A stretch of 14,879 nucleotides of DNA from Candidatus Thorarchaeota archaeon (GTDB taxonomy: Archaea; Asgardarchaeota; Thorarchaeia; Thorarchaeales; Thorarchaeaceae), in NCBI GenBank assembly GCA_003345555.1, contig PRDJ01000011.1, positions 1 to 14,879 of the forward strand, written 5' to 3'. Both the position numbers and the translations under genes were made by a program. Below the pieces are notes generated by a model. That model saw only the letters and a program-made list of their open reading frames with translations. It had not been told where the DNA came from and did no database searches. Each line of letters opens with the position of its first letter. Position 1 is the first letter of the stretch. Positions 4,198 to 14,879 of the stretch are shown here, in pieces.

Positions 4198-6375
4198 TTG
4201 ACTTCAAAGGAGAAGATTTCCGCAGGAAAGAAAGCCAAGAAGGGCGAAAAGGGCAAGACTGCAAAGACAGCAGGTCCACGGAAAACCGCAAGGAGGACCG
4301 TCGCCACGAAGGCGCCAAAGAAGCCTGTGAAGGAAAAGAAGGTAAGAAAGACCGCCCGCGCAAGACGTGTGAGGAAGTCTGTACCTACAAAGAGTGCACC
4401 AGCGGTCGAAGTCACCACCGAAGAGTCGGGCGAGATCCGACAAGGTACAATTGCAAAGTTCATGCGAAAGCGGACACAGCTTGTCGGCTTCGAGACCGGG
4501 CTCAACAAACACACTCAATATGCGATTGAGTTCCTAGACAATTCAGCTGATGCACTTGAAAGCATGTGGTGGAAACTCGACAGGAAACCAAGACTAAGCG
4601 ACCAACTCGACCCGAAACTGGCGGAGGAAGTCAAGGAGAGATTCAAGGATCAGCTATCGGACACAATCGCGTTTAGCAAGAAAATCGAGAAGGATACTCG
4701 AGATGGAAAGGCTGTTGAGATACCACCAAGACCTAAGGAGAACCTCGAAGCACACCTGACCCGATTCAGGAAATTCCTTGTGCCGTTTAGAAGCTTTATC
4801 ACAAGGCATGAGCCGCTGATAGTAATTCAAGTGACAGAGGTGCTGATGCCCGACCTGGTACCTGTAGACGATGAAGAGGGATTCAAGGTCTACGAGTTCA
4901 TATGTCTTGACACGGGTATTGGCATGGTGCCCGCAGACCTAGAGAAGTTCGGCATCTACCTAGCATCCAGCAAGTCAGAGCATCTCAAACAGACCAGAGG
5001 AAGTCAGGGCTTTGGTGCACCATCTGCCTTTAGTGATGCGCAGAATACGACTGGAAAGCCGATGTTCGTGGTCACAAAGAGATACAATAGCGACAAGTCA
5101 ACAGTCGCGGAGTTCTATACGACCACCGCTAACACGAAGGAGTATGTGAATGGTCCCCTCGAGATGGACCTCCCTTTGGAGCACGGCACATACATCAAAC
5201 TCTACTATCTCAATATCCAGTACAAACGAGGCTACGCAGACATGTATGCTGAGATGGCTTCTTTGCTGGACCCTCATATCACAATTGTGTTCATAGACCC
5301 TTACGGTGAGATACATATGTACCCGCGTCGGGTCAGTGTCTTCCCAGACGAACCGAAGTATGCCCAAGCTCATCCTGCGAGCATAAGAGTAGGGGAGTTC
5401 CAGGATCTGCTTCGTGAGACTACAGAAAAGGACCTTCAAGGATTCCTGACAAGAGGCTTCTGCAGGCTGAGCTCAAACAAAGCCAATGCGATTTTAGAGA
5501 AGACAAACAAGGAACTAAGGATTCGCAAGCTCGATGCGATAAGCGGTCGGACCCCTACCGATTCATTATCGAAGACAGAGACAGAATTCCTGTACAAATC
5601 GTTCTCAAGTGAAGAATACATCGCTCCACCAACTGATACTGTTGTCCCTGTGGGAGAGGAAGTATTCGAGAGGACCATCAAGTCGGCATTCAAGCCGGAA
5701 TTTGCGGCAGCAATCACAAGGAAGCCTTGCTCGGGTAAGGGGTTGTCATTTGCCGTCGAGGCCTGTATAGCTTATGGTGGCGACATAAAACCTGCATCAT
5801 CTGCCAATGCGGTACTCTGGAGATATGTCAACAGGGTTCCGAAGCTTAGAGACAACAGTGACTGTGCCATGTGGAAGGCAACTGCTTCGGTCAATTGGAA
5901 GAACTACAAGCTTGATTCATTTGATAACGGGATACCAAGAGGACCTGTCATGCTCTTCATACACGTGTGCGGCGCGTACGTACATGTTATGTTCAAAGGA
6001 AAGAGCAAGCAGGCTCTCGCCGAAGATGAAGTACTGATCAGAGAAATCAAACTCGCCCTTGAAGATGCAGGGAGGAAATTCAGGTCCTTCATAACAAAAC
6101 GAGATACTGCACAGCGGAAGGCGAAGAGAGCTGGTATTCTGGCCATGTATGCAGACCAGTTCGCTCATAGTCTCGTTACAGTCGCAAACGATGGCAAACG
6201 AAAGAAGCAGTTTGACGCTGAAGTTGTTGCACAGAAGCTGAGGGATGCTATCTCAGGATTCGAACTCGAGGCAGATGAAGAGGAGGTTGGTGTGGATGTT
6301 CTCGGTGAAGAGATACTATCAGATTCCTCTGCCAGCGGAGATGAAGGCTTCTCTTCTGGGGGCAAGGATGAGTAG
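4198..6375 (+). CDS. top6B: DNA topoisomerase VI subunit B (GHKL ATPase) with basic N-tail, GHKL insertion and acidic C-tail
   Basis: 725 aa. N-box IEFLDNSADA (E111, N115), G1 DTGIG (D238), ATP-lid/G2 QTRGSQGFG, HGTYIKL, H2TH region (FCRLSSNKA...LSKTETEFL), YIAPPTDTVVPVGEE, and transducer RYVNRVP and FKGKSKQALA (switch Lys). Confidence 0.93.
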   Translation: MTSKEKISAGKKAKKGEKGKTAKTAGPRKTARRTVATKAPKKPVKEKKVRKTARARRVRKSVPTKSAPAVEVTTEESGEIRQGTIAKFMRKRTQLVGFETGLNKHTQYAIEFLDNSADALESMWWKLDRKPRLSDQLDPKLAEEVKERFKDQLSDTIAFSKKIEKDTRDGKAVEIPPRPKENLEAHLTRFRKFLVPFRSFITRHEPLIVIQVTEVLMPDLVPVDDEEGFKVYEFICLDTGIGMVPADLEKFGIYLASSKSEHLKQTRGSQGFGAPSAFSDAQNTTGKPMFVVTKRYNSDKSTVAEFYTTTANTKEYVNGPLEMDLPLEHGTYIKLYYLNIQYKRGYADMYAEMASLLDPHITIVFIDPYGEIHMYPRRVSVFPDEPKYAQAHPASIRVGEFQDLLRETTEKDLQGFLTRGFCRLSSNKANAILEKTNKELRIRKLDAISGRTPTDSLSKTETEFLYKSFSSEEYIAPPTDTVVPVGEEVFERTIKSAFKPEFAAAITRKPCSGKGLSFAVEACIAYGGDIKPASSANAVLWRYVNRVPKLRDNSDCAMWKATASVNWKNYKLDSFDNGIPRGPVMLFIHVCGAYVHVMFKGKSKQALAEDEVLIREIKLALEDAGRKFRSFITKRDTAQRKAKRAGILAMYADQFAHSLVTVANDGKRKKQFDAEVVAQKLRDAISGFELEADEEEVGVDVLGEEILSDSSASGDEGFSSGGKDE

Positions 6376-8591
6376 TGGTCGGAAACAAGGATGAGGACAG
6401 CCAGCCAGTGCAGACGACATTGGGAGAGCTCATCGAATCAAAGAAATCGGGGATGCAAAAGATGAAGTCAGCCAAGAGCAGCACGCGAGCAAGAAAGCAC
6501 AACAACGCTCGTGCAAACGATAAGAAGAGTACGAAGAAAGGGCAATCTGCGAAAGCGACGAAGAAGCAATCCTCGAAAGTCGCTCCCTCGAAGTCTCCAA
6601 GACCGAAGCATCCTGCCAGCAAGCCCGCAAAGGAGAAGAAAGAAGAGCCCAAACAGAAAACTGGTACCGAACGCACCCCATCAGTTCCCAGCCAAGAAGG
6701 CACCGCCCTGAAGCTCTTGCCAGGAGTGGGAGCCAAGCTCGCACAGAAGCTGGCATCTACCGGTTATGACTCAGTAGAGAGGCTGTCCAAAGCGAGAGCC
6801 GACGCGCTATCACGCAGAATCAAGGGCTTGAACGTTGAGGAAGCAAAGAAAATCATTCGCACTGCCACAGAGTATCTTCGCGGCAGGTCGGTGACAGACG
6901 AGACGTTGTCAGTGGAGGCGGCTACTCCAGTGAGTGGAGCAGCTCTTCTCGCTGCCGAAGACAGTGCTGCAGAGACTGCGACCGCGAAGTCAGATGAAGA
7001 GGGCAGCAAGACTAAGGAATATGACATAAAGCTCACGGAGTTGCCAGGCGTTGGTCCCAAGCTCGCAGAGAGATTCAGGGAAGCGGGCTATGATTCGGTT
7101 GCGCGCGTTTCAAGATCACGTCCCGACGCCCTGGCACGCACTGTTGCTGGTCTCAGCAAGGATCGCGCCAAGTCAATTGTCTCAGCCGCAAAGGAAGCTA
7201 TCACTTCAAGACAGCTTGCGGAATTGGCAGAGGAAGCTTCAAAGACTGCTCCGGAACCGAAAAGGGGAGCCGCAGCGCCCCCAACTAAGAAACGGGGCAA
7301 GGCAAAGACCCAGGAGACAGTCGTCTCCCCGCTCTTACAGAAAGCCAAGGCCAAGAAGCCTATCGAGAAACGTCCCAGACCTGTAATCAAATCATCGGGT
7401 CTTCCCGTACCCGAATCCGTGCTCGAGCTACGCAGGGAACTGAAAGCTCGCTATCGTGCTGCCGAAAAGGCGGAAGCCGCAGCAGGATCTGAGGCTCCAG
7501 CTTTCGCCTCCGGCACCGTCCAAGTCGCCGACCTAACATCCGATGAGACGACTGCCAGATTGGTCGAAGCGGCAATTGAAGTTCTCAATGAGACCATGAC
7601 CACAGGCCGCCCATCATTCGAGATTCCAAGCAGATCGGCAGACAACATTGTCTGGGACGAAATCAAGGATCTACTGCTTCTAGGCATGCGTACTATATCT
7701 CGGCCTTATCATTCTCTTGCATCGGTCTTGGACGCGACAAGAACAGCCCGAGTAATGGAGATTGTCTATCAGCTTCTCCGATCTGGCCTCCATGCAACGA
7801 AAAGAGAGCTCTACTACGCCGATGTCAATCTGTTCAGAGACCAAAGATACAGTGACAAGATTATTGAAGATGTCGCTTCAATGCTGCCTACAACCCGTGA
7901 CAGCATCCATGTCGTGGCTGCCGCAAGAGGCTCGGCCATGGGAAGGATTGTTATCAGAGACGCGGGTGATAGAATTGACCTAACGCAAATGGGAACAGGC
8001 GGTTGGGCCATAACACCCTTCTTGGATCAGGTCGAGATCGTCGAGAGTGATGCAGAGTTCATCCTGCTGTCGGAGAAGGACGCAGCCGTCATGAGACTTG
8101 CGGAAGCCAAATACTGGAATAGGCAACCCTGTATTGTGATTACCGGAAAAGGATCTGGTGACATAGCTACGAGAGCCTTCCTCAAGACAATGGTGAAGGA
8201 ACTTGAGATTCCAGCATTCGCATTGATGGACTCAGACCCATACGGTCACTACATCTACTCTGTGTTTCTAAGAGGCAGCAAGCGCTTGAGCTACGAGTCG
8301 CCATTCATAGCTACGCCGGAACTGAAGCTTCTCGGAGTGCTTAGCAGAGACCTTGATGAATTCAAGATTCCAAAGAGTGTGCGTATTCCAATGATGCCAG
8401 CTGACATCAAACGAGTGAAGGAGATGCTCAAGGAGCCGTTCGTGCAGAAGAATGATCCTTGGGTCGAAGATCTGCAGTTGATGCTGAGGATAAAAGAGAA
8501 GGCGGAAATCCAAGCATTTGCTAGCCACGGGTTCGAATACCTAACAGACGAATACATTCCGAGGAAGCTCGAGACTGGCGATTGGATATAG
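6375..8591 (+). CDS. top6A: DNA topoisomerase VI subunit A (Spo11 family) with a long N-terminal extension bearing two HhH modules
   Basis: 738 aa. The C-terminal ~350 aa have 5Y-CAP TKRELYY (catalytic Tyr481), Toprim LSEKDA (E567), ITGKG, DSDPYG (D619/D621) and the KAEIQAF end motif. The GTG start overlaps the top6B stop (TAGTG); alternative ATG at 6453. Confidence 0.93.
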   Translation: MVGNKDEDSQPVQTTLGELIESKKSGMQKMKSAKSSTRARKHNNARANDKKSTKKGQSAKATKKQSSKVAPSKSPRPKHPASKPAKEKKEEPKQKTGTERTPSVPSQEGTALKLLPGVGAKLAQKLASTGYDSVERLSKARADALSRRIKGLNVEEAKKIIRTATEYLRGRSVTDETLSVEAATPVSGAALLAAEDSAAETATAKSDEEGSKTKEYDIKLTELPGVGPKLAERFREAGYDSVARVSRSRPDALARTVAGLSKDRAKSIVSAAKEAITSRQLAELAEEASKTAPEPKRGAAAPPTKKRGKAKTQETVVSPLLQKAKAKKPIEKRPRPVIKSSGLPVPESVLELRRELKARYRAAEKAEAAAGSEAPAFASGTVQVADLTSDETTARLVEAAIEVLNETMTTGRPSFEIPSRSADNIVWDEIKDLLLLGMRTISRPYHSLASVLDATRTARVMEIVYQLLRSGLHATKRELYYADVNLFRDQRYSDKIIEDVASMLPTTRDSIHVVAAARGSAMGRIVIRDAGDRIDLTQMGTGGWAITPFLDQVEIVESDAEFILLSEKDAAVMRLAEAKYWNRQPCIVITGKGSGDIATRAFLKTMVKELEIPAFALMDSDPYGHYIYSVFLRGSKRLSYESPFIATPELKLLGVLSRDLDEFKIPKSVRIPMMPADIKRVKEMLKEPFVQKNDPWVEDLQLMLRIKEKAEIQAFASHGFEYLTDEYIPRKLETGDWI
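6708..7190 (+). repeat. Two 53-aa intragenic HhH-module repeats (6708-6866 and 7032-7190) in top6A
   Basis: LKLLPGVGAKLAQKLASTGYDSVERLSKARADALSRRIKGLNVEEAKKIIRTA vs LTELPGVGPKLAERFREAGYDSVARVSRSRPDALARTVAGLSKDRAKSIVSAA: 27/53 identical by ungapped manual alignment. Confidence 0.9.
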
Positions 8592-10249: not shown

Positions 10250-10873
10250 CTAGAATTGATATAGCAGTGAATATACGGCCAACGTTACAGCCATCCCAAT
10301 CAGAATACCGCCAACAGACTGAGCAAGTGAGTGCTGTCTAAGAGTCGTTCTTGCCCACACTACAGCAATCCATAAGATGACAACAGGAAGCGCCGCCATC
10401 CCATAAACGAACAGGAGTGCCGTGCCAGGTCCTCCCACGCCTGCGGCATGTACCGATATCTTTGTCCGAAGAGTTGTGATCATCACAGCGGAGGTCACGC
10501 CAAAGTAGGCGGCAGCAAGAACCCTCATGATGTCGCACTGCAACCACCAGTATACTACATAGGCAGCAACATAGCACAGCAGAGAGAATGCAAAGAACCG
10601 CAGCCTCATTTCTCGGGCCGAGACATCAAGATCAACCTTGCCTCTGTGAGCCTGAATCACGATCGGCGAGACAGGTGCAACGACCATCAGGACGAGACAA
10701 ATGATTACGCTAGTGAAAGGAGTAAGAAAGGGACCAAGGGTAATCGGTGAGAAACATGACATGATAATCCCTACATACAGATTCACAAATGGAGCTGGTG
10801 CCACTCTCGATATAGCACGCGCTACTCCAGCACGGTGACCCTGAAGGCCTAGTATCTCGTCGTGGTACTTCAA
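10250..10873 (-). CDS. PAP2-like membrane protein (lipid phosphatase superfamily)
   Basis: 207 aa, about 6-7 TM segments. KISVHAAG (C2-like) and WARTTLRQHSLAQ (C3-like R-x5-H). TTG start with a GGTGAG RBS upstream. Confidence 0.7.
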   Translation of the reverse strand: MKYHDEILGLQGHRAGVARAISRVAPAPFVNLYVGIIMSCFSPITLGPFLTPFTSVIICLVLMVVAPVSPIVIQAHRGKVDLDVSAREMRLRFFAFSLLCYVAAYVVYWWLQCDIMRVLAAAYFGVTSAVMITTLRTKISVHAAGVGGPGTALLFVYGMAALPVVILWIAVVWARTTLRQHSLAQSVGGILIGMAVTLAVYSLLYQF

Positions 10874-11073
10874 CCGAACTCACCGAATGATAGGTCGACT
10901 CTCGGGCTTGCGCGCTTGAATCTTTCTCCTCGTCACGCTTAAGAACTCAGGACGTATGAGGCACCCGGTCCGGCCACTGAATGGGACAACCTTGGCAGCT
11001 CATCTCTCGGTGCTCGTGCTTCTCATCCCACAGAGCCGGTCACCTCCTATGTGTCGAGAATGGTAGCGGAAAG

Positions 11074-12612
11074 ATGAAAAGCCGCCTACACCAACAACGC
11101 CTGCCTGTGGTGTCAGTGCGGGAGATCAAAGGACAACAAGTAAGGCCATTCGTCGTTCTCGCCTTGTTAGTTGGAAGCATTGCGCTGCTTTGGTCCAGTA
11201 CTTTCTTTGTTCAGATACGCAGCGACTCTGGCTCTTTTTGGGCATCAGATGGTTATAACCATGTAGAGGTTGAACTGAACTCAACGACACCAGGAGTCAA
11301 CGTAACAATCGAGACGGTCAGACTCCATATACCTCACTTCAATGTTTCAGCTGGAAATGCAAGCATATTGGTCAGGGCAGCAAATGGCACCGTTCTTTCC
11401 AACATGAGCTTCGTATCTGGCGAATTCATTCCTGGCGTTATGAGTCAAGAATCGATTCCTGACTACGGCTATCCTGTGCAGACGTTCACCATCGCTCTAT
11501 ACTGGGAAGGGGCCAACAATACAGTGACTTTCGATTACGAGGAGTATATAGTCGCGGTCTGGGATGGTGTTCCATACGCAGTGATCCTGCCCGGGTTCTA
11601 TGAGCGACTCTGTACGGGCCTGTGCCTTCTTGCAGCGAGCATTCTACTGTTCGCTTTCACGACATGGGTCTACAACTCCTTGACTTTCTCGGGAATGCGC
11701 CTACCTGAGTACGTCCTGCTAATCTCCGGTTTCCTGCTTCCAACGCTGCTAGGGTTCTTTGTTTTCGGAACGAACATCGTCTTCCGTTTGTATTCCTCAC
11801 TATGGTACTATAGCACCGGAACGAGCGCATTCGCTACACGCATATCGTCAACAATCGAACTCTTTCCCAATGCCTTCGCCTTGGCAGGGCTTCCTTTCAA
11901 CGCTCTCCTGTGTCTCGGCATCTGGCTATCCAGTAAAGGCAGGATAAGCAAACGCGGCTATGAGCTGGTTCTGGGGTTTAGCTTCCTCCCTCAGATTCTA
12001 GCATTGTGTGCAGATTTGTACCAACTGATAGTGCCGTACAGCCCGGCTACATACTACGTTCCCATTCCCTTTCTTCAGGTAGCTGCATACCGCCTATGGA
12101 GCTCCTGGGCACCCACAGAACCGGAGAAAGGTATGTTGCTGCGGCCAGAGAGAGTACTTGCGTTGGGATCCTTACTCGCAGTAGCTGCTCCCGTTCAGTT
12201 TTACATATACTCTGATTGGTGGAGTTCATACTGGGAGTTGTCTGCCTATTGGTGGACCTACGGCAACGGGGGGTACTACGCGGGTCTCGTTCTGGTATCT
12301 TCAGCTTATCAGATAGGAGTCTCTCTCCTGTTCATACTCGTACGATTGTTCTTCGCGTTTGTGCTGTACAGATATTGCCAAGGCAGTATGAACTTCACGT
12401 TAGTTCTCTTGACAGGAATTGTCGCTGAGATGCCTTACCTCGCCGTCGACATCTTCTATATTCTCCAATTCTCGTTATACCACGCAGTTGGATATTCCGG
12501 GCTTCCCACGCCGTTGCTCCTCTGCTTTGGCCTGATTATTGCAGCCTACCAACGTCGTTTTCCTCAGAATCATGTCGCAAAATCGGCCCCTTGGATGGCC
12601 GCTCTGCGCTAA
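11074..12612 (+). CDS. Hypothetical multi-pass membrane protein with sequon-rich extracellular domain and internal duplication
   Basis: N-terminal TM/signal segment, a beta-rich ectodomain with 7 N-x-S/T sequons, then many TM helices in two similar halves. Start uncertain (10981, 11074 or later). Confidence 0.8.
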   Translation: MKSRLHQQRLPVVSVREIKGQQVRPFVVLALLVGSIALLWSSTFFVQIRSDSGSFWASDGYNHVEVELNSTTPGVNVTIETVRLHIPHFNVSAGNASILVRAANGTVLSNMSFVSGEFIPGVMSQESIPDYGYPVQTFTIALYWEGANNTVTFDYEEYIVAVWDGVPYAVILPGFYERLCTGLCLLAASILLFAFTTWVYNSLTFSGMRLPEYVLLISGFLLPTLLGFFVFGTNIVFRLYSSLWYYSTGTSAFATRISSTIELFPNAFALAGLPFNALLCLGIWLSSKGRISKRGYELVLGFSFLPQILALCADLYQLIVPYSPATYYVPIPFLQVAAYRLWSSWAPTEPEKGMLLRPERVLALGSLLAVAAPVQFYIYSDWWSSYWELSAYWWTYGNGGYYAGLVLVSSAYQIGVSLLFILVRLFFAFVLYRYCQGSMNFTLVLLTGIVAEMPYLAVDIFYILQFSLYHAVGYSGLPTPLLLCFGLIIAAYQRRFPQNHVAKSAPWMAALR

Positions 12613-13128: not shown

Positions 13129-14058
13129 TTGAGTTCCGAAGCTTTTAGCACTCAATCACTGAAGAAGCTCTACGGCCACACGCTGGCGCTCCAAGAAATC
13201 AGCGTAAGTGCGCCCAAGAAAGCAGTTGGTCTCTTGGGACCGAACGGCGCTGGCAAGACAACCTTGATTCGTGTCTTGATGGGCATCATCCCGTTCAATT
13301 CGGGCTCAGCGACTGTGCTGGGCAGACCAATGCCCGCTTCGCTCAATGATATAAGAGACCACGTCGGGTACTCGCCAGAGTTCTCGCCAACGATGCCTGA
13401 CGTGTCTGCGCAGAAGTACGTGACTTTCATGGGCAGGCTTTCGGGCTTGAACTCAGTGGAAGCAGCACAAAGAGCTCACGATACGCTACACTATGTCGGG
13501 CTGGGCGAGGAGAGGTACAGACGCCTTGGCGAATACAGCACCGGAATGATGCAAAAGTGCAAATTGGCGACCGCTCTTGTCCACGACCCGGAACTCCTGA
13601 TACTCGATGAGCCAACGGACGGCCTTGACCCCAGCGGACGCCATCAGATGCTTGAGTTGATCAAGAAGCTGTATGTCGAGGAGAAGAAGAGCATAATCCT
13701 GTCCTCTCACCTTCTGTTCGATGTTCAGCGGGTCTGTGACTGGGTGGTCATATTAGGAAGGGGACGAGTTATTGCGAATGGGGACGTGTCTCAAATGCTC
13801 GCTGATAGCTCTGGGACCGTCAGACTCAAAGTTGCTGGGAATCCTGAACTGCTTGTCTCCAGACTAAAGTCGAGAGGCATTGATGCCGCGAGCGAGGGAC
13901 AGTATGTCGACGTCCAAAGGACCGAGAACGTTGAGATGAAGGTCTTAGAGGAAATCCAAAAGGAACGTTCACTGGGCCTGCGCTATCTAGGACCAAAGAC
14001 GCGAACACTTGAGGACGTGTTCATGTCGCTTGTTGAAGGCAGGAGTGACATGGAATGA
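13129..14058 (+). CDS. ABC-2 type transporter ATP-binding subunit
   Basis: Walker A GPNGAGKTT, signature-like YSTGM, Walker B/D-loop LLILDEPTDGLDP, H-loop LSSH, and a C-terminal LEDVF motif typical of DrrA/CcmA-like exporters. Confidence 0.95.
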   Translation: MSSEAFSTQSLKKLYGHTLALQEISVSAPKKAVGLLGPNGAGKTTLIRVLMGIIPFNSGSATVLGRPMPASLNDIRDHVGYSPEFSPTMPDVSAQKYVTFMGRLSGLNSVEAAQRAHDTLHYVGLGEERYRRLGEYSTGMMQKCKLATALVHDPELLILDEPTDGLDPSGRHQMLELIKKLYVEEKKSIILSSHLLFDVQRVCDWVVILGRGRVIANGDVSQMLADSSGTVRLKVAGNPELLVSRLKSRGIDAASEGQYVDVQRTENVEMKVLEEIQKERSLGLRYLGPKTRTLEDVFMSLVEGRSDME

Positions 14059-14879
14059 GCACAGAAGGCACAGATGAGACCTATGTAAGAAAATTCGGCT
14101 TCCGGCCGTTTACTGGCGTGAGACTGGGCAGGCTCTACAGAACTGTCTCAGTTGCTTGGTTCAACTTGATTGAGGCTATTCGGCGGTCAGGATTCACTAA
14201 GTTTCTTTTGGTGATAATGATATTCAACCTCATCATTCAAGATGTAGTAATCATAGTTCTAGCAAGACTAGTACCACCTGAGCTCCTCGGAATCACACTG
14301 ACTGAGTTGTTCCAAGGATCCTATACCGACTCCGTGCTAGGGATGGTCTCGATACTTAACCGGATAACGACCCAAACAGGACCATTCACTGGCGGCCTAG
14401 GACTGACATCTGTGGGAACCAGCTTTCTCTGGCTTCTTCTTCTGTCTGTCGTGGGAGGAGGCCTCATCTCAGATGACAAGTTGTATCGAACTACAGAGAC
14501 CTACTTCTCGAGGATTACGCGCCTCGAGTATGTCATTGGAAAGCTCCTCAGCCTTATGCTCTTCTCATTGTTCATTCTGACATTTCCAGCAGTGCTCCAA
14601 TACGTGCTTCTGTGCATGGGATTAGGCATTGGCTTCCTCGACAACGTAGGTCTCCTAGTCTGGGCGCTGGGTTTCACTCTAATGGCTGCGCTTGCATTGA
14701 GCATGATTATTCTTTCACTGTCCAGCCTCACAAAAAGAAGAAGTCTTGCTTCTCTTACTCTCTTCATATTCGTCGTACTGATGTCAAGCCTTCCGTCAGC
14801 GTTTGGGACAATAGTGAATAACCCAGTCACGCTTCTAATCGATTTCGTCGGTTGCATCGCTTTGTTCGGTGCAATGATG
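14055..14879 (+). CDS. ABC-2 type transporter permease (3' truncated; not in ORF track)
   Basis: ATG overlaps the ATPase stop (ATGA). The frame is open for 275 codons to the edge: MSTEGTDETYVRKFGFRPF...LLSVVGGGLISDDKLYRTTETYFSRITRLEYVIGKLLSL..., with the ABC-2 permease motif and several TM helices. Confidence 0.9.
   Translation, partial: MSTEGTDETYVRKFGFRPFTGVRLGRLYRTVSVAWFNLIEAIRRSGFTKFLLVIMIFNLIIQDVVIIVLARLVPPELLGITLTELFQGSYTDSVLGMVSILNRITTQTGPFTGGLGLTSVGTSFLWLLLLSVVGGGLISDDKLYRTTETYFSRITRLEYVIGKLLSLMLFSLFILTFPAVLQYVLLCMGLGIGFLDNVGLLVWALGFTLMAALALSMIILSLSSLTKRRSLASLTLFIFVVLMSSLPSAFGTIVNNPVTLLIDFVGCIALFGAMM

Follow-up and report, generated by a model that had tools for sequence, protein, structure and literature searches.

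The window analysed in this study is an entire contig of 14,879 bp (C11) from a Thorarchaeota genome that is 2.28 Mb in size and 93% complete. Its central feature is an operon for topoisomerase VI (Topo VI) in which the catalytic subunit, Top6A, carries a long N-terminal arm with two helix-hairpin-helix modules of the (HhH)2 type. The upstream gene, top6B (4198..6375, + strand), encodes a protein of 725 amino acids (aa) that matches the NCBIfam model for Topo VI subunit B (NF003218) with 337.9 bits, compared to an equivalog cut-off of 274, and that contains the Pfam domain Topo-VIb_trans. It is followed by top6A (6375..8591, + strand), whose 738-aa product starts with the N-terminal arm (residues 1-345) and continues through a conserved helix into the Top6A core. 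The TAG stop codon of top6B and the GTG start codon of top6A share one base, and the two genes are translationally coupled. The GTG at 6375 was accepted as the start of top6A because the N-terminal residues are kept in orthologs.

The catalytic core of Top6A (residues 389-738; 7539..8588, + strand) comprises a 5Y-CAP domain with the motif RELYY at residues 477-481 and a Toprim domain with E567 and D619-x-D621. Pfam TP6A_N was matched at residues 455-513 (71.1 bits, cut-off 26) and the Top6A Toprim family PF21180 at residues 562-732 with 178.2 bits, covering model positions 1-170 and hence its full length, while the NCBIfam Top6A models align to residues 387-738 only. The catalytic tyrosine of the RELYY motif, Y481, is invariant in 38 orthologs, as are the metal-binding Toprim residues E567, D619, and D621 in the ortholog alignment. 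A reading made earlier from the sequence alone (hereafter the sequence-only reading) had described the repeats as fused to a Spo11/Top6A core, and these matches with their catalytic residues establish that the core is intact. Since the ATPase partner encoded by top6B is intact as well, the enzyme is, as judged from its sequence, a strand-passage topoisomerase predicted to act as an ATP-dependent A2B2 tetramer, and not a dedicated break-maker.

The arm begins with a lysine-rich, predicted disordered tail (residues 1-111; 6375..6707, + strand), which has a net charge of +17 and a predicted local distance difference test score (pLDDT) of 31-45. At its extreme N-terminus, the tail includes a motif resembling a PCNA-interacting-protein (PIP) box, Q13-T-T-L-G-E-L-I20 (6411..6434, + strand), which was recognized through its conservation in orthologs and a complex model with PCNA. 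The first (HhH)2 module (residues 112-168; 6708..6878, + strand) belongs to Pfam HHH_5, scored 39.3 bits in a scan of its own genome, and has conserved residues G117, G119, K121, and G151. It is separated by an acidic, predicted disordered linker (residues 169-216; 6879..7022, + strand; net charge -5, isoelectric point 4.4, pLDDT about 30-40) from the second module (residues 217-275; 7023..7199, + strand), for which the best HHH_5 stretch spans residues 219-274, the score in the same scan was 48.7 bits, and the conserved residues are G225, G227, K229, and G259. A second lysine-rich disordered linker (residues 276-345; 7200..7409, + strand; net charge +11) leads to the conserved pre-core helix (residues 346-372; 7410..7490, + strand), within which residues 347-369 are predicted to be helical with a pLDDT of 68-86. 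An extra N-terminal helix has been described for the TopoVIA of Asgard archaea and eukaryotes (Brinkmeier et al. 2022, PMC9665070), and the pre-core helix probably corresponds to it.

The repeats themselves were reproduced exactly as the sequence-only reading had given them. Residues 112-272 correspond to positions 6708-7190 of the window, and the two stretches of 53 aa that start with LPGVG at residues 115 and 223 are identical at 27/53 positions. A BLASTP comparison of the two repeat regions yielded 45% identity over 64 aa (E value of 1e-18), and Pfam HHH_5 was found in two stretches of the Top6A product with 75.7 bits compared to a cut-off of 27 (E value of 3.9e-21). The charges given above, with -5 between the modules, +17 before, and +11 after them, likewise match the acidic linker and lysine-rich flanks that had been noted, and the Thorarchaeota names of the orthologs agree with the proposal of an Asgard host.

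Contigs from a DNA run of another sample, which is not flagged as a source of the assembly, span positions 6338-7047 and 7110-8042 and thus both junctions of the arm. Because these contigs cover the fusion and orthologs in 79 genomes keep the same layout, the fusion of HhH modules to Top6A is neither an assembly nor a gene-calling artefact. Furthermore, contigs from one wetland RNA library cover positions 7026-7193 (module 2) and 7322-7622 (start of the core) as well as parts of top6B. These contigs hint only weakly at transcription, since DNA can occur in such libraries, and the stretches that were not covered are uninformative.

The genes around top6B-top6A are unrelated to it and encode a major facilitator superfamily (MFS) transporter, zinc-ribbon proteins, an F420 ligase, and an ATP-binding cassette (ABC) ATPase. 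Three further open reading frames of the window, at 10250-10873 (- strand), 10981-12612 (+ strand), and 14055-14879 (+ strand), encode 207, 543, and at least 275 aa, respectively, and had no Pfam match at an E value of 1e-4. With respect to Top6B, the protein has a lysine-rich N-terminal tail (residues 1-80, net charge +20), an acidic C-terminal tail (net charge -12), and an insert of ~90 aa between the N-box and the G1 box of its GHKL domain. The insert and the acidic tail are shared. The N-terminal tail is long in the genus of the window and in the sister family but comprises only about 25-30 residues in three other genera, and it was therefore rejected as part of a conserved design.

Relatives of the (HhH)2 modules

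In the AlphaFold2 (AF2) model, both modules reach a pLDDT of 83-95 (83-91 for module 1 and 92-95 for module 2), with values below 45 for the tails and linkers. Each module contains two hairpins, the first with the sequence L-P-G-V-G and the second with G-L-N or G-L-S, the glycines of which are conserved. When the modules were compared to the PDB with Foldseek, the best matches were N-terminal domains of RadA and Rad51, with a root-mean-square deviation of 1.0-1.1 Å over 54 residues and 33-42% identity. For a domain of 55 residues, no match reached an E value of 0.001 in this search; those of the RadA and Rad51 domains were 3e-3 or weaker and thus indicate a likeness of fold only. Other fold matches included NusA AR2, topoisomerase V, polymerase iota, and Hjm. 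At the level of sequence profiles, a two-module profile searched against solved chains gave topoisomerase V as the best total match (E value of 1.6e-14), and a one-repeat profile matched the N-terminal domain of Pyrococcus furiosus RadA as a single domain with 54 bits. RadA models were also the best NCBIfam matches to the arm. The assignment of the repeats to HHH_5-type (HhH)2 modules similar to the N-terminus of RadA/Rad51, as well as their similarity to the repeats of topoisomerase V, had both been anticipated by the sequence-only reading and are confirmed by Pfam, Foldseek, and the profile scores.

The likeness to the RadA N-terminal domain is therefore real at the level of the family, and it is this shared fold, together with the 33-42% identity and the NCBIfam matches, that speaks for the more far-reaching idea that the modules mimic or recruit the RadA filament and so couple cleavage by a Spo11 homolog to strand exchange. 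However, a search with the repeat profile among 1.84 billion representative sequences returned 3829 proteins, in which, Top6A ortholog fragments aside, the top single-domain scores of 65-79 bits belonged to HHH_5 domains fused to L32e, S25e, Rpb6, or HEAT-repeat proteins or occurring in small proteins, compared to 43-51 bits for the RadA N-terminal domains. The same order was found within the organism's own genome, in which an HhH-Rpb6-like protein scored 64 bits, RadA (G000:C6:42581-43522) 51 bits, and an MFS-HhH protein 48 bits. In a maximum-likelihood tree of 64 modules and 56 columns, the deep forks of which are weak, the six RadA N-terminal domains shared one side of a branch (recovered in 70% of bootstrap trees), within a half that contains no Top6A repeat, and the Top6A repeats were interspersed with generic HHH_5 fusions. 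Moreover, RadA, Rad51, and Dmc1 join this domain to a RecA-type ATPase core and a polymerization motif, whereas Pfam gave no match to a RecA-type ATPase core in the Top6A product and no FxxA-type polymerization motif follows either module; the sole FxxA of the arm (residue 234) is located in a module 2 helix and is not kept by the orthologs. Together with the intact ATPase partner, which points to a strand-passage enzyme rather than to a dedicated break-maker, these results make mimicry or recruitment of RadA extremely improbable, and a specific derivation of the modules from RadA is not supported either. The special tie to the recombinase that had been suggested did thus not survive the comparison of nearest relatives by profile search and tree, in which the Top6A repeats grouped with generic HhH fusions.

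By score and by tree, the modules are accordingly closest to the promiscuous HHH_5 domains of archaea, which differ from the Top6A modules in that their fusion partners (L32e, S25e, L13e, Rpb6, HEAT, and MFS proteins) are not topoisomerases. The genome that contains the window has 16 HHH_5 matches in many different contexts. Examples of such fusions within it are an Rpb6-like protein (L002:1381-2088), the C-terminus of a 536-aa protein (L009:1438-3048), and a ribosomal protein L13e (L015:1129-1677); outside this genome, the same subtype is found on L32e, S25e, and HEAT-repeat proteins, frequently as 2-9 copies. HEAT-HhH proteins were considered as candidate accessory subunits of Topo VI, but the two that were checked lie in unrelated neighbourhoods and not beside Topo VI genes, and the idea was therefore dropped.

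A further comparison concerns topoisomerase V of Methanopyrus kandleri, a type IC enzyme with 12 (HhH)2 domains in tandem, which likewise combines a topoisomerase with tandem modules of the same Pfam family. The likeness is one of design and not of membership, as the catalytic domain of topoisomerase V is of the unrelated type IC compared to type IIB here. Furthermore, the modules of Top6A are N-terminal and split by disordered linkers, in contrast to the packed array of topoisomerase V, and their number in orthologs is usually two and at most 7, compared to 12. The (HhH)2 domains of topoisomerase V harbor three lysine-based apurinic/apyrimidinic (AP) lyase sites, the second and third of which have been placed where domains 9 and 10 meet and within domain 12 (PMC4838376). 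An AP lyase activity of the Top6A modules would be in line with their richness in lysine and with the presence of topoisomerase V repeats among their closest solved relatives. We nevertheless regard it as very unlikely: within topoisomerase V, residues 626-678 match best, the second and third lyase sites are placed at the domain 9/10 junction and in domain 12, and the same HHH_5 subtype occurs in many proteins without a role in repair.

Distribution of the arm and the two Topo VI operons

Among 5.8 billion proteins searched, 120 were listed that combine HHH_5 and Top6A, the one encoded in the window included, and those with a taxonomic name were mostly assigned to Thorarchaeota. Among 400 genomes of the phylum, an ortholog was found in 79 of the 85 genomes of the window's own family, with 60-81% identity in alignments covering the larger part of the protein and with open frames about 700-950 aa long. 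The repeat profile matched neither the Top6A of the sister family (one genome, 420 aa) nor that of five other Asgard families that were sampled; the N-terminal segments of these other Asgard Top6A proteins are short and basic and contain a helix at the equivalent place. As a separate observation, a Top6A from another Asgard family (L033:2-760; G123:C299), whose frame remains open at the end of its contig, carries an N-terminal stretch of ~250 residues that consists mostly of tandem Pro/Lys repeats of the type PPPAEVKK and lacks HhH modules. Because other Asgard Top6A proteins carry short basic N-termini or this PPPAEVKK tail, basic N-terminal tails appear to be a recurrent theme, and because neither the sister family nor the other families sampled have the arm on their Top6A, it is an addition made within one family on this common background. 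The sequence-only reading had asked whether the architecture is common outside its lineage; the fusion was found to be confined to a single family.

Within this family, the number of modules varies. Two modules are present in 114 of the 121 listed proteins (a list in which the window's own protein appears twice), and 3, 4, 5, or 7 in the remainder. In the tree of repeats, one protein's seven modules group as a clade specific to its lineage, and the same holds for four out of five modules in a second protein; since modules of the same protein form their own clades, the arrays grew by lineage-specific internal duplication. This duplication of extra modules suggests selection on the number of DNA-binding modules. 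Conservation extends to the hairpins and to the charge of their surroundings: across 38-70 orthologs, both hairpin glycines and the lysine that follows the first hairpin show no or almost no variation in each module, and the arm is basic in all orthologs, with a median net charge of +24 for the N-terminal tail and of +14 for the linker that follows the modules.

In its catalytic core, the HhH-bearing protein is an ordinary conserved Asgard-type Top6A. The core shares 56-65% identity with the single Top6A (about 395-410 aa) found in most other Asgard families; among solved chains, its closest match is Top6A of Sulfolobus shibatae, and it matches the yeast type of Spo11 weakly. It shares with Asgard-type Top6A the catalytic tyrosine, the acidic Toprim residues, the pre-core helix, and the coupled top6B, and it differs by the ~345-residue arm with its PIP-like motif, polybasic tracts, and two (HhH)2 modules, without which Asgard-type Top6A occurs elsewhere. 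The genome encodes a second, compact Topo VI operon (G000:C10:44798-47357) with a Top6B of 507 aa and a Top6A of 355 aa. This compact Top6A is only 29% identical to the HhH-bearing core, is conserved across Thorarchaeota, and is euryarchaeal-like, with the enzymes of Methanosarcina mazei and Methanocaldococcus jannaschii as its closest solved chains. Many genomes of the window's family additionally contain a third match to the Toprim family. The pattern of core identities fits the published placement, in which the conserved Asgard Top6A is sister to eukaryotic Top6A/Spo11 and the extra Top6A copies, up to three in Thorarchaeia, are related to those of other archaea (Nat Ecol Evol 2025, PMC12680538). 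No match to GyrA (PF00521) was found in the genome, which is 93% complete and has two complete Topo VI operons, in agreement with the reported absence of gyrase from Thorarchaeota (PMC9348778).

We found no description of an HhH arm on Top6A in the literature searched, and it is unmentioned in the study of Asgard Top6A (PMC12680538), by Brinkmeier et al. (PMC9665070), by Allen et al., and in the reviews consulted. The architecture is thus new as a lineage-fixed feature of a eukaryote-proximal Asgard Top6A, while the protein itself represents a variant of a known enzyme.

The N-terminal motif and a proposed role for the arm

Besides the modules, the arm carries a conserved N-terminal motif. The sequence Q-x-T-L was found within the first 35 aa of 115 of the 120 orthologs, and the five without it are short proteins of 644-670 aa, one of which is named 'partial' by its source. 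Among 47 N-termini that are otherwise only about 25% identical, Q13, T15, L16, and G17 are invariant. The conserved form of the motif is Q-x-T-L-G-x-L-V, in which position 7 is L or V and position 8 is V, I, or L; the window's protein has L and I. The other Asgard Top6A proteins examined lack it at their N-termini. Compared to the PIP consensus Q-x-x-[LIM]-x-x-[FY]-[FY], Q13, L16, and the terminal position of the motif match, whereas positions 7 and 8 are aliphatic and not aromatic. An archaeal PIP consensus peptide has been given as KTTQSTLDSFFK (PMC4929162), and in the same review of archaeal PCNA partners, Topo VI features only as a protein that was co-purified with NucS. With archaeal PCNA clients, such as Fen1, PolB, and RFC-L, the motif shares its terminal location, Q at position 1, T at position 3, L at position 4, the basic flanks, and the modelled placement in the PIP site, but the clients have aromatic residues at positions 7 and 8. 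In this context, it should be mentioned that two Fen1-type genes (G000:C10:39168-39449 and G000:C37:53431-53676) encode products that end with a canonical (QRSLTDYY) and a variant (QATLEQWT) C-terminal PIP box, respectively.

A complex model of the PCNA from the same genome (G000:C50:34178-34930) with residues 1-45 of Top6A received a score of 0.74, compared to 0.00 for the best control; this mark is reached by 58 of 80 solved complexes and by 2 of 110 mismatched pairs. Across three runs, at least 63% of the contacts were common and the pLDDT of the partner was at least 49. In the model, residues 10-17 and 19-20 contact PCNA at residues 40, 43-47, 123-128 (the interdomain loop), 226, and 242-249 (the C-terminal tail), which corresponds to the canonical PIP site. 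The model and the conservation suggest that the N-terminal motif may dock on PCNA.

We consider it likely that the (HhH)2 modules and the basic tracts together serve as a non-specific tether to double-stranded DNA for an Asgard-type Topo VI, with a probable docking on PCNA in addition. This function is favoured because the glycines and lysines of the hairpins are conserved, the flanks are basic and disordered, the number of modules has been expanded, and the Topo VI itself is complete. Of the two roles offered by the sequence-only reading, a DNA tether thus stands as the best interpretation, on the grounds of the conserved hairpins, the basic flanks, and the likeness to topoisomerase V, and the recruitment of RadA falls away. 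In topoisomerase V, DNA is wrapped by the (HhH)2 domains, which seem to serve as a processivity factor (PMC9489208), and Topo VI of M. mazei is slow and highly distributive on supercoils (PMC8837201). Since canonical Topo VI has these properties, extra anchoring on DNA would be of obvious use. The Asgard-type Top6A of one family has gained a flexible arm of ~345 residues, in which a PIP-box-like motif is followed by a polybasic disordered tail, two (HhH)2 modules with an acidic linker, and a second polybasic linker. In the mechanism that we propose, the modules and the basic tracts most likely contact the phosphate backbone of double-stranded DNA irrespective of its sequence, in the manner of the (HhH)2 array of topoisomerase V. 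The A2B2 enzyme would thereby be held on or near its substrate, with a higher local affinity for DNA, a better chance to capture a second duplex, and greater processivity. The N-terminal motif would probably add docking on the sliding clamp PCNA and, in this way, place Topo VI at replicating DNA.

Several points weigh against the DNA tether with PCNA docking. DNA binding by the arm and an effect on activity are what we infer from its sequence. The modules are split by disordered linkers and do not form a continuous packed array as in topoisomerase V, and the full-length AF2 model is poor in the core (mean pLDDT of 51 and predicted template modelling score of 0.23 from an alignment of 38 rows), so that contacts between the arm and the body cannot be read from it. 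For the PIP-like motif, the two positions that are aromatic in the canonical box are aliphatic, both are hydrophobic in only 88 of 115 orthologs, and terminal aliphatic patterns of this kind occur in 25 of the 1558 long open reading frames of the genome. Moreover, since complexes of PIP boxes with PCNA are abundant among solved structures, the score of the PCNA model may reflect no more than a likeness to the PIP box rather than binding.

Finally, (HhH)2 domains can mediate protein contacts, and among the fold matches of the modules are NusA AR2 as part of a protein complex (6ib8) and the N-terminal lobe of RAD51 on the histone H4 tail of a nucleosome (8xbw). The modules might accordingly be protein-protein adaptors that dock Topo VI on chromatin proteins, e.g., archaeal histones, or on another partner without binding DNA directly, and the occurrence of the same HHH_5 subtype on ribosomal proteins, Rpb6, and an MFS transporter, for which a role in DNA binding is not obvious, would fit this. 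We consider such an adaptor function unlikely, as both hairpins keep the G-hydrophobic-G or G-L-S sequences and the lysine that contact DNA phosphates in HhH proteins, the modules are embedded in strongly basic tracts, and no candidate partner is linked to them in the gene neighbourhood.

As an extension of the non-specific tether, the arm as a whole could be a device that couples Topo VI to the replisome, with the PIP-like motif docking the enzyme on PCNA and the (HhH)2 modules and basic tracts holding a nearby duplex. We put this forward tentatively, as a possibility that is more doubtful than DNA binding by the modules. If it were true, the HhH-bearing Topo VI would serve as the swivel or decatenase at the fork in a gyrase-free lineage, other tasks would fall to the compact Topo VI, and the enzyme would be the first of type IIB to have a clamp tether built in.

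Both plant Topo VI and Spo11, which makes the meiotic breaks, have their archaeal ancestor-type in Topo VI, and the eukaryotic Topo VI depends on additional partners that bind DNA. The HhH arm does not bear on a link between Spo11 and the recombinase, as the evidence does not support one. However, it indicates that the Asgard copy nearest to the eukaryotic enzymes has what appear, from their sequence, to be built-in (HhH)2 DNA-binding modules, possibly together with a clamp-docking motif. The natural range of 2-7 modules and the presence of a plain second Topo VI in the same cell constitute a ready-made natural experiment. The finding thus opens the questions of how accessory DNA anchoring affects the activity of a type IIB topoisomerase, how labour is divided between two Topo VI enzymes in a gyrase-less lineage, and whether a type II topoisomerase may be coupled to the sliding clamp in the archaeal relatives of eukaryotes.

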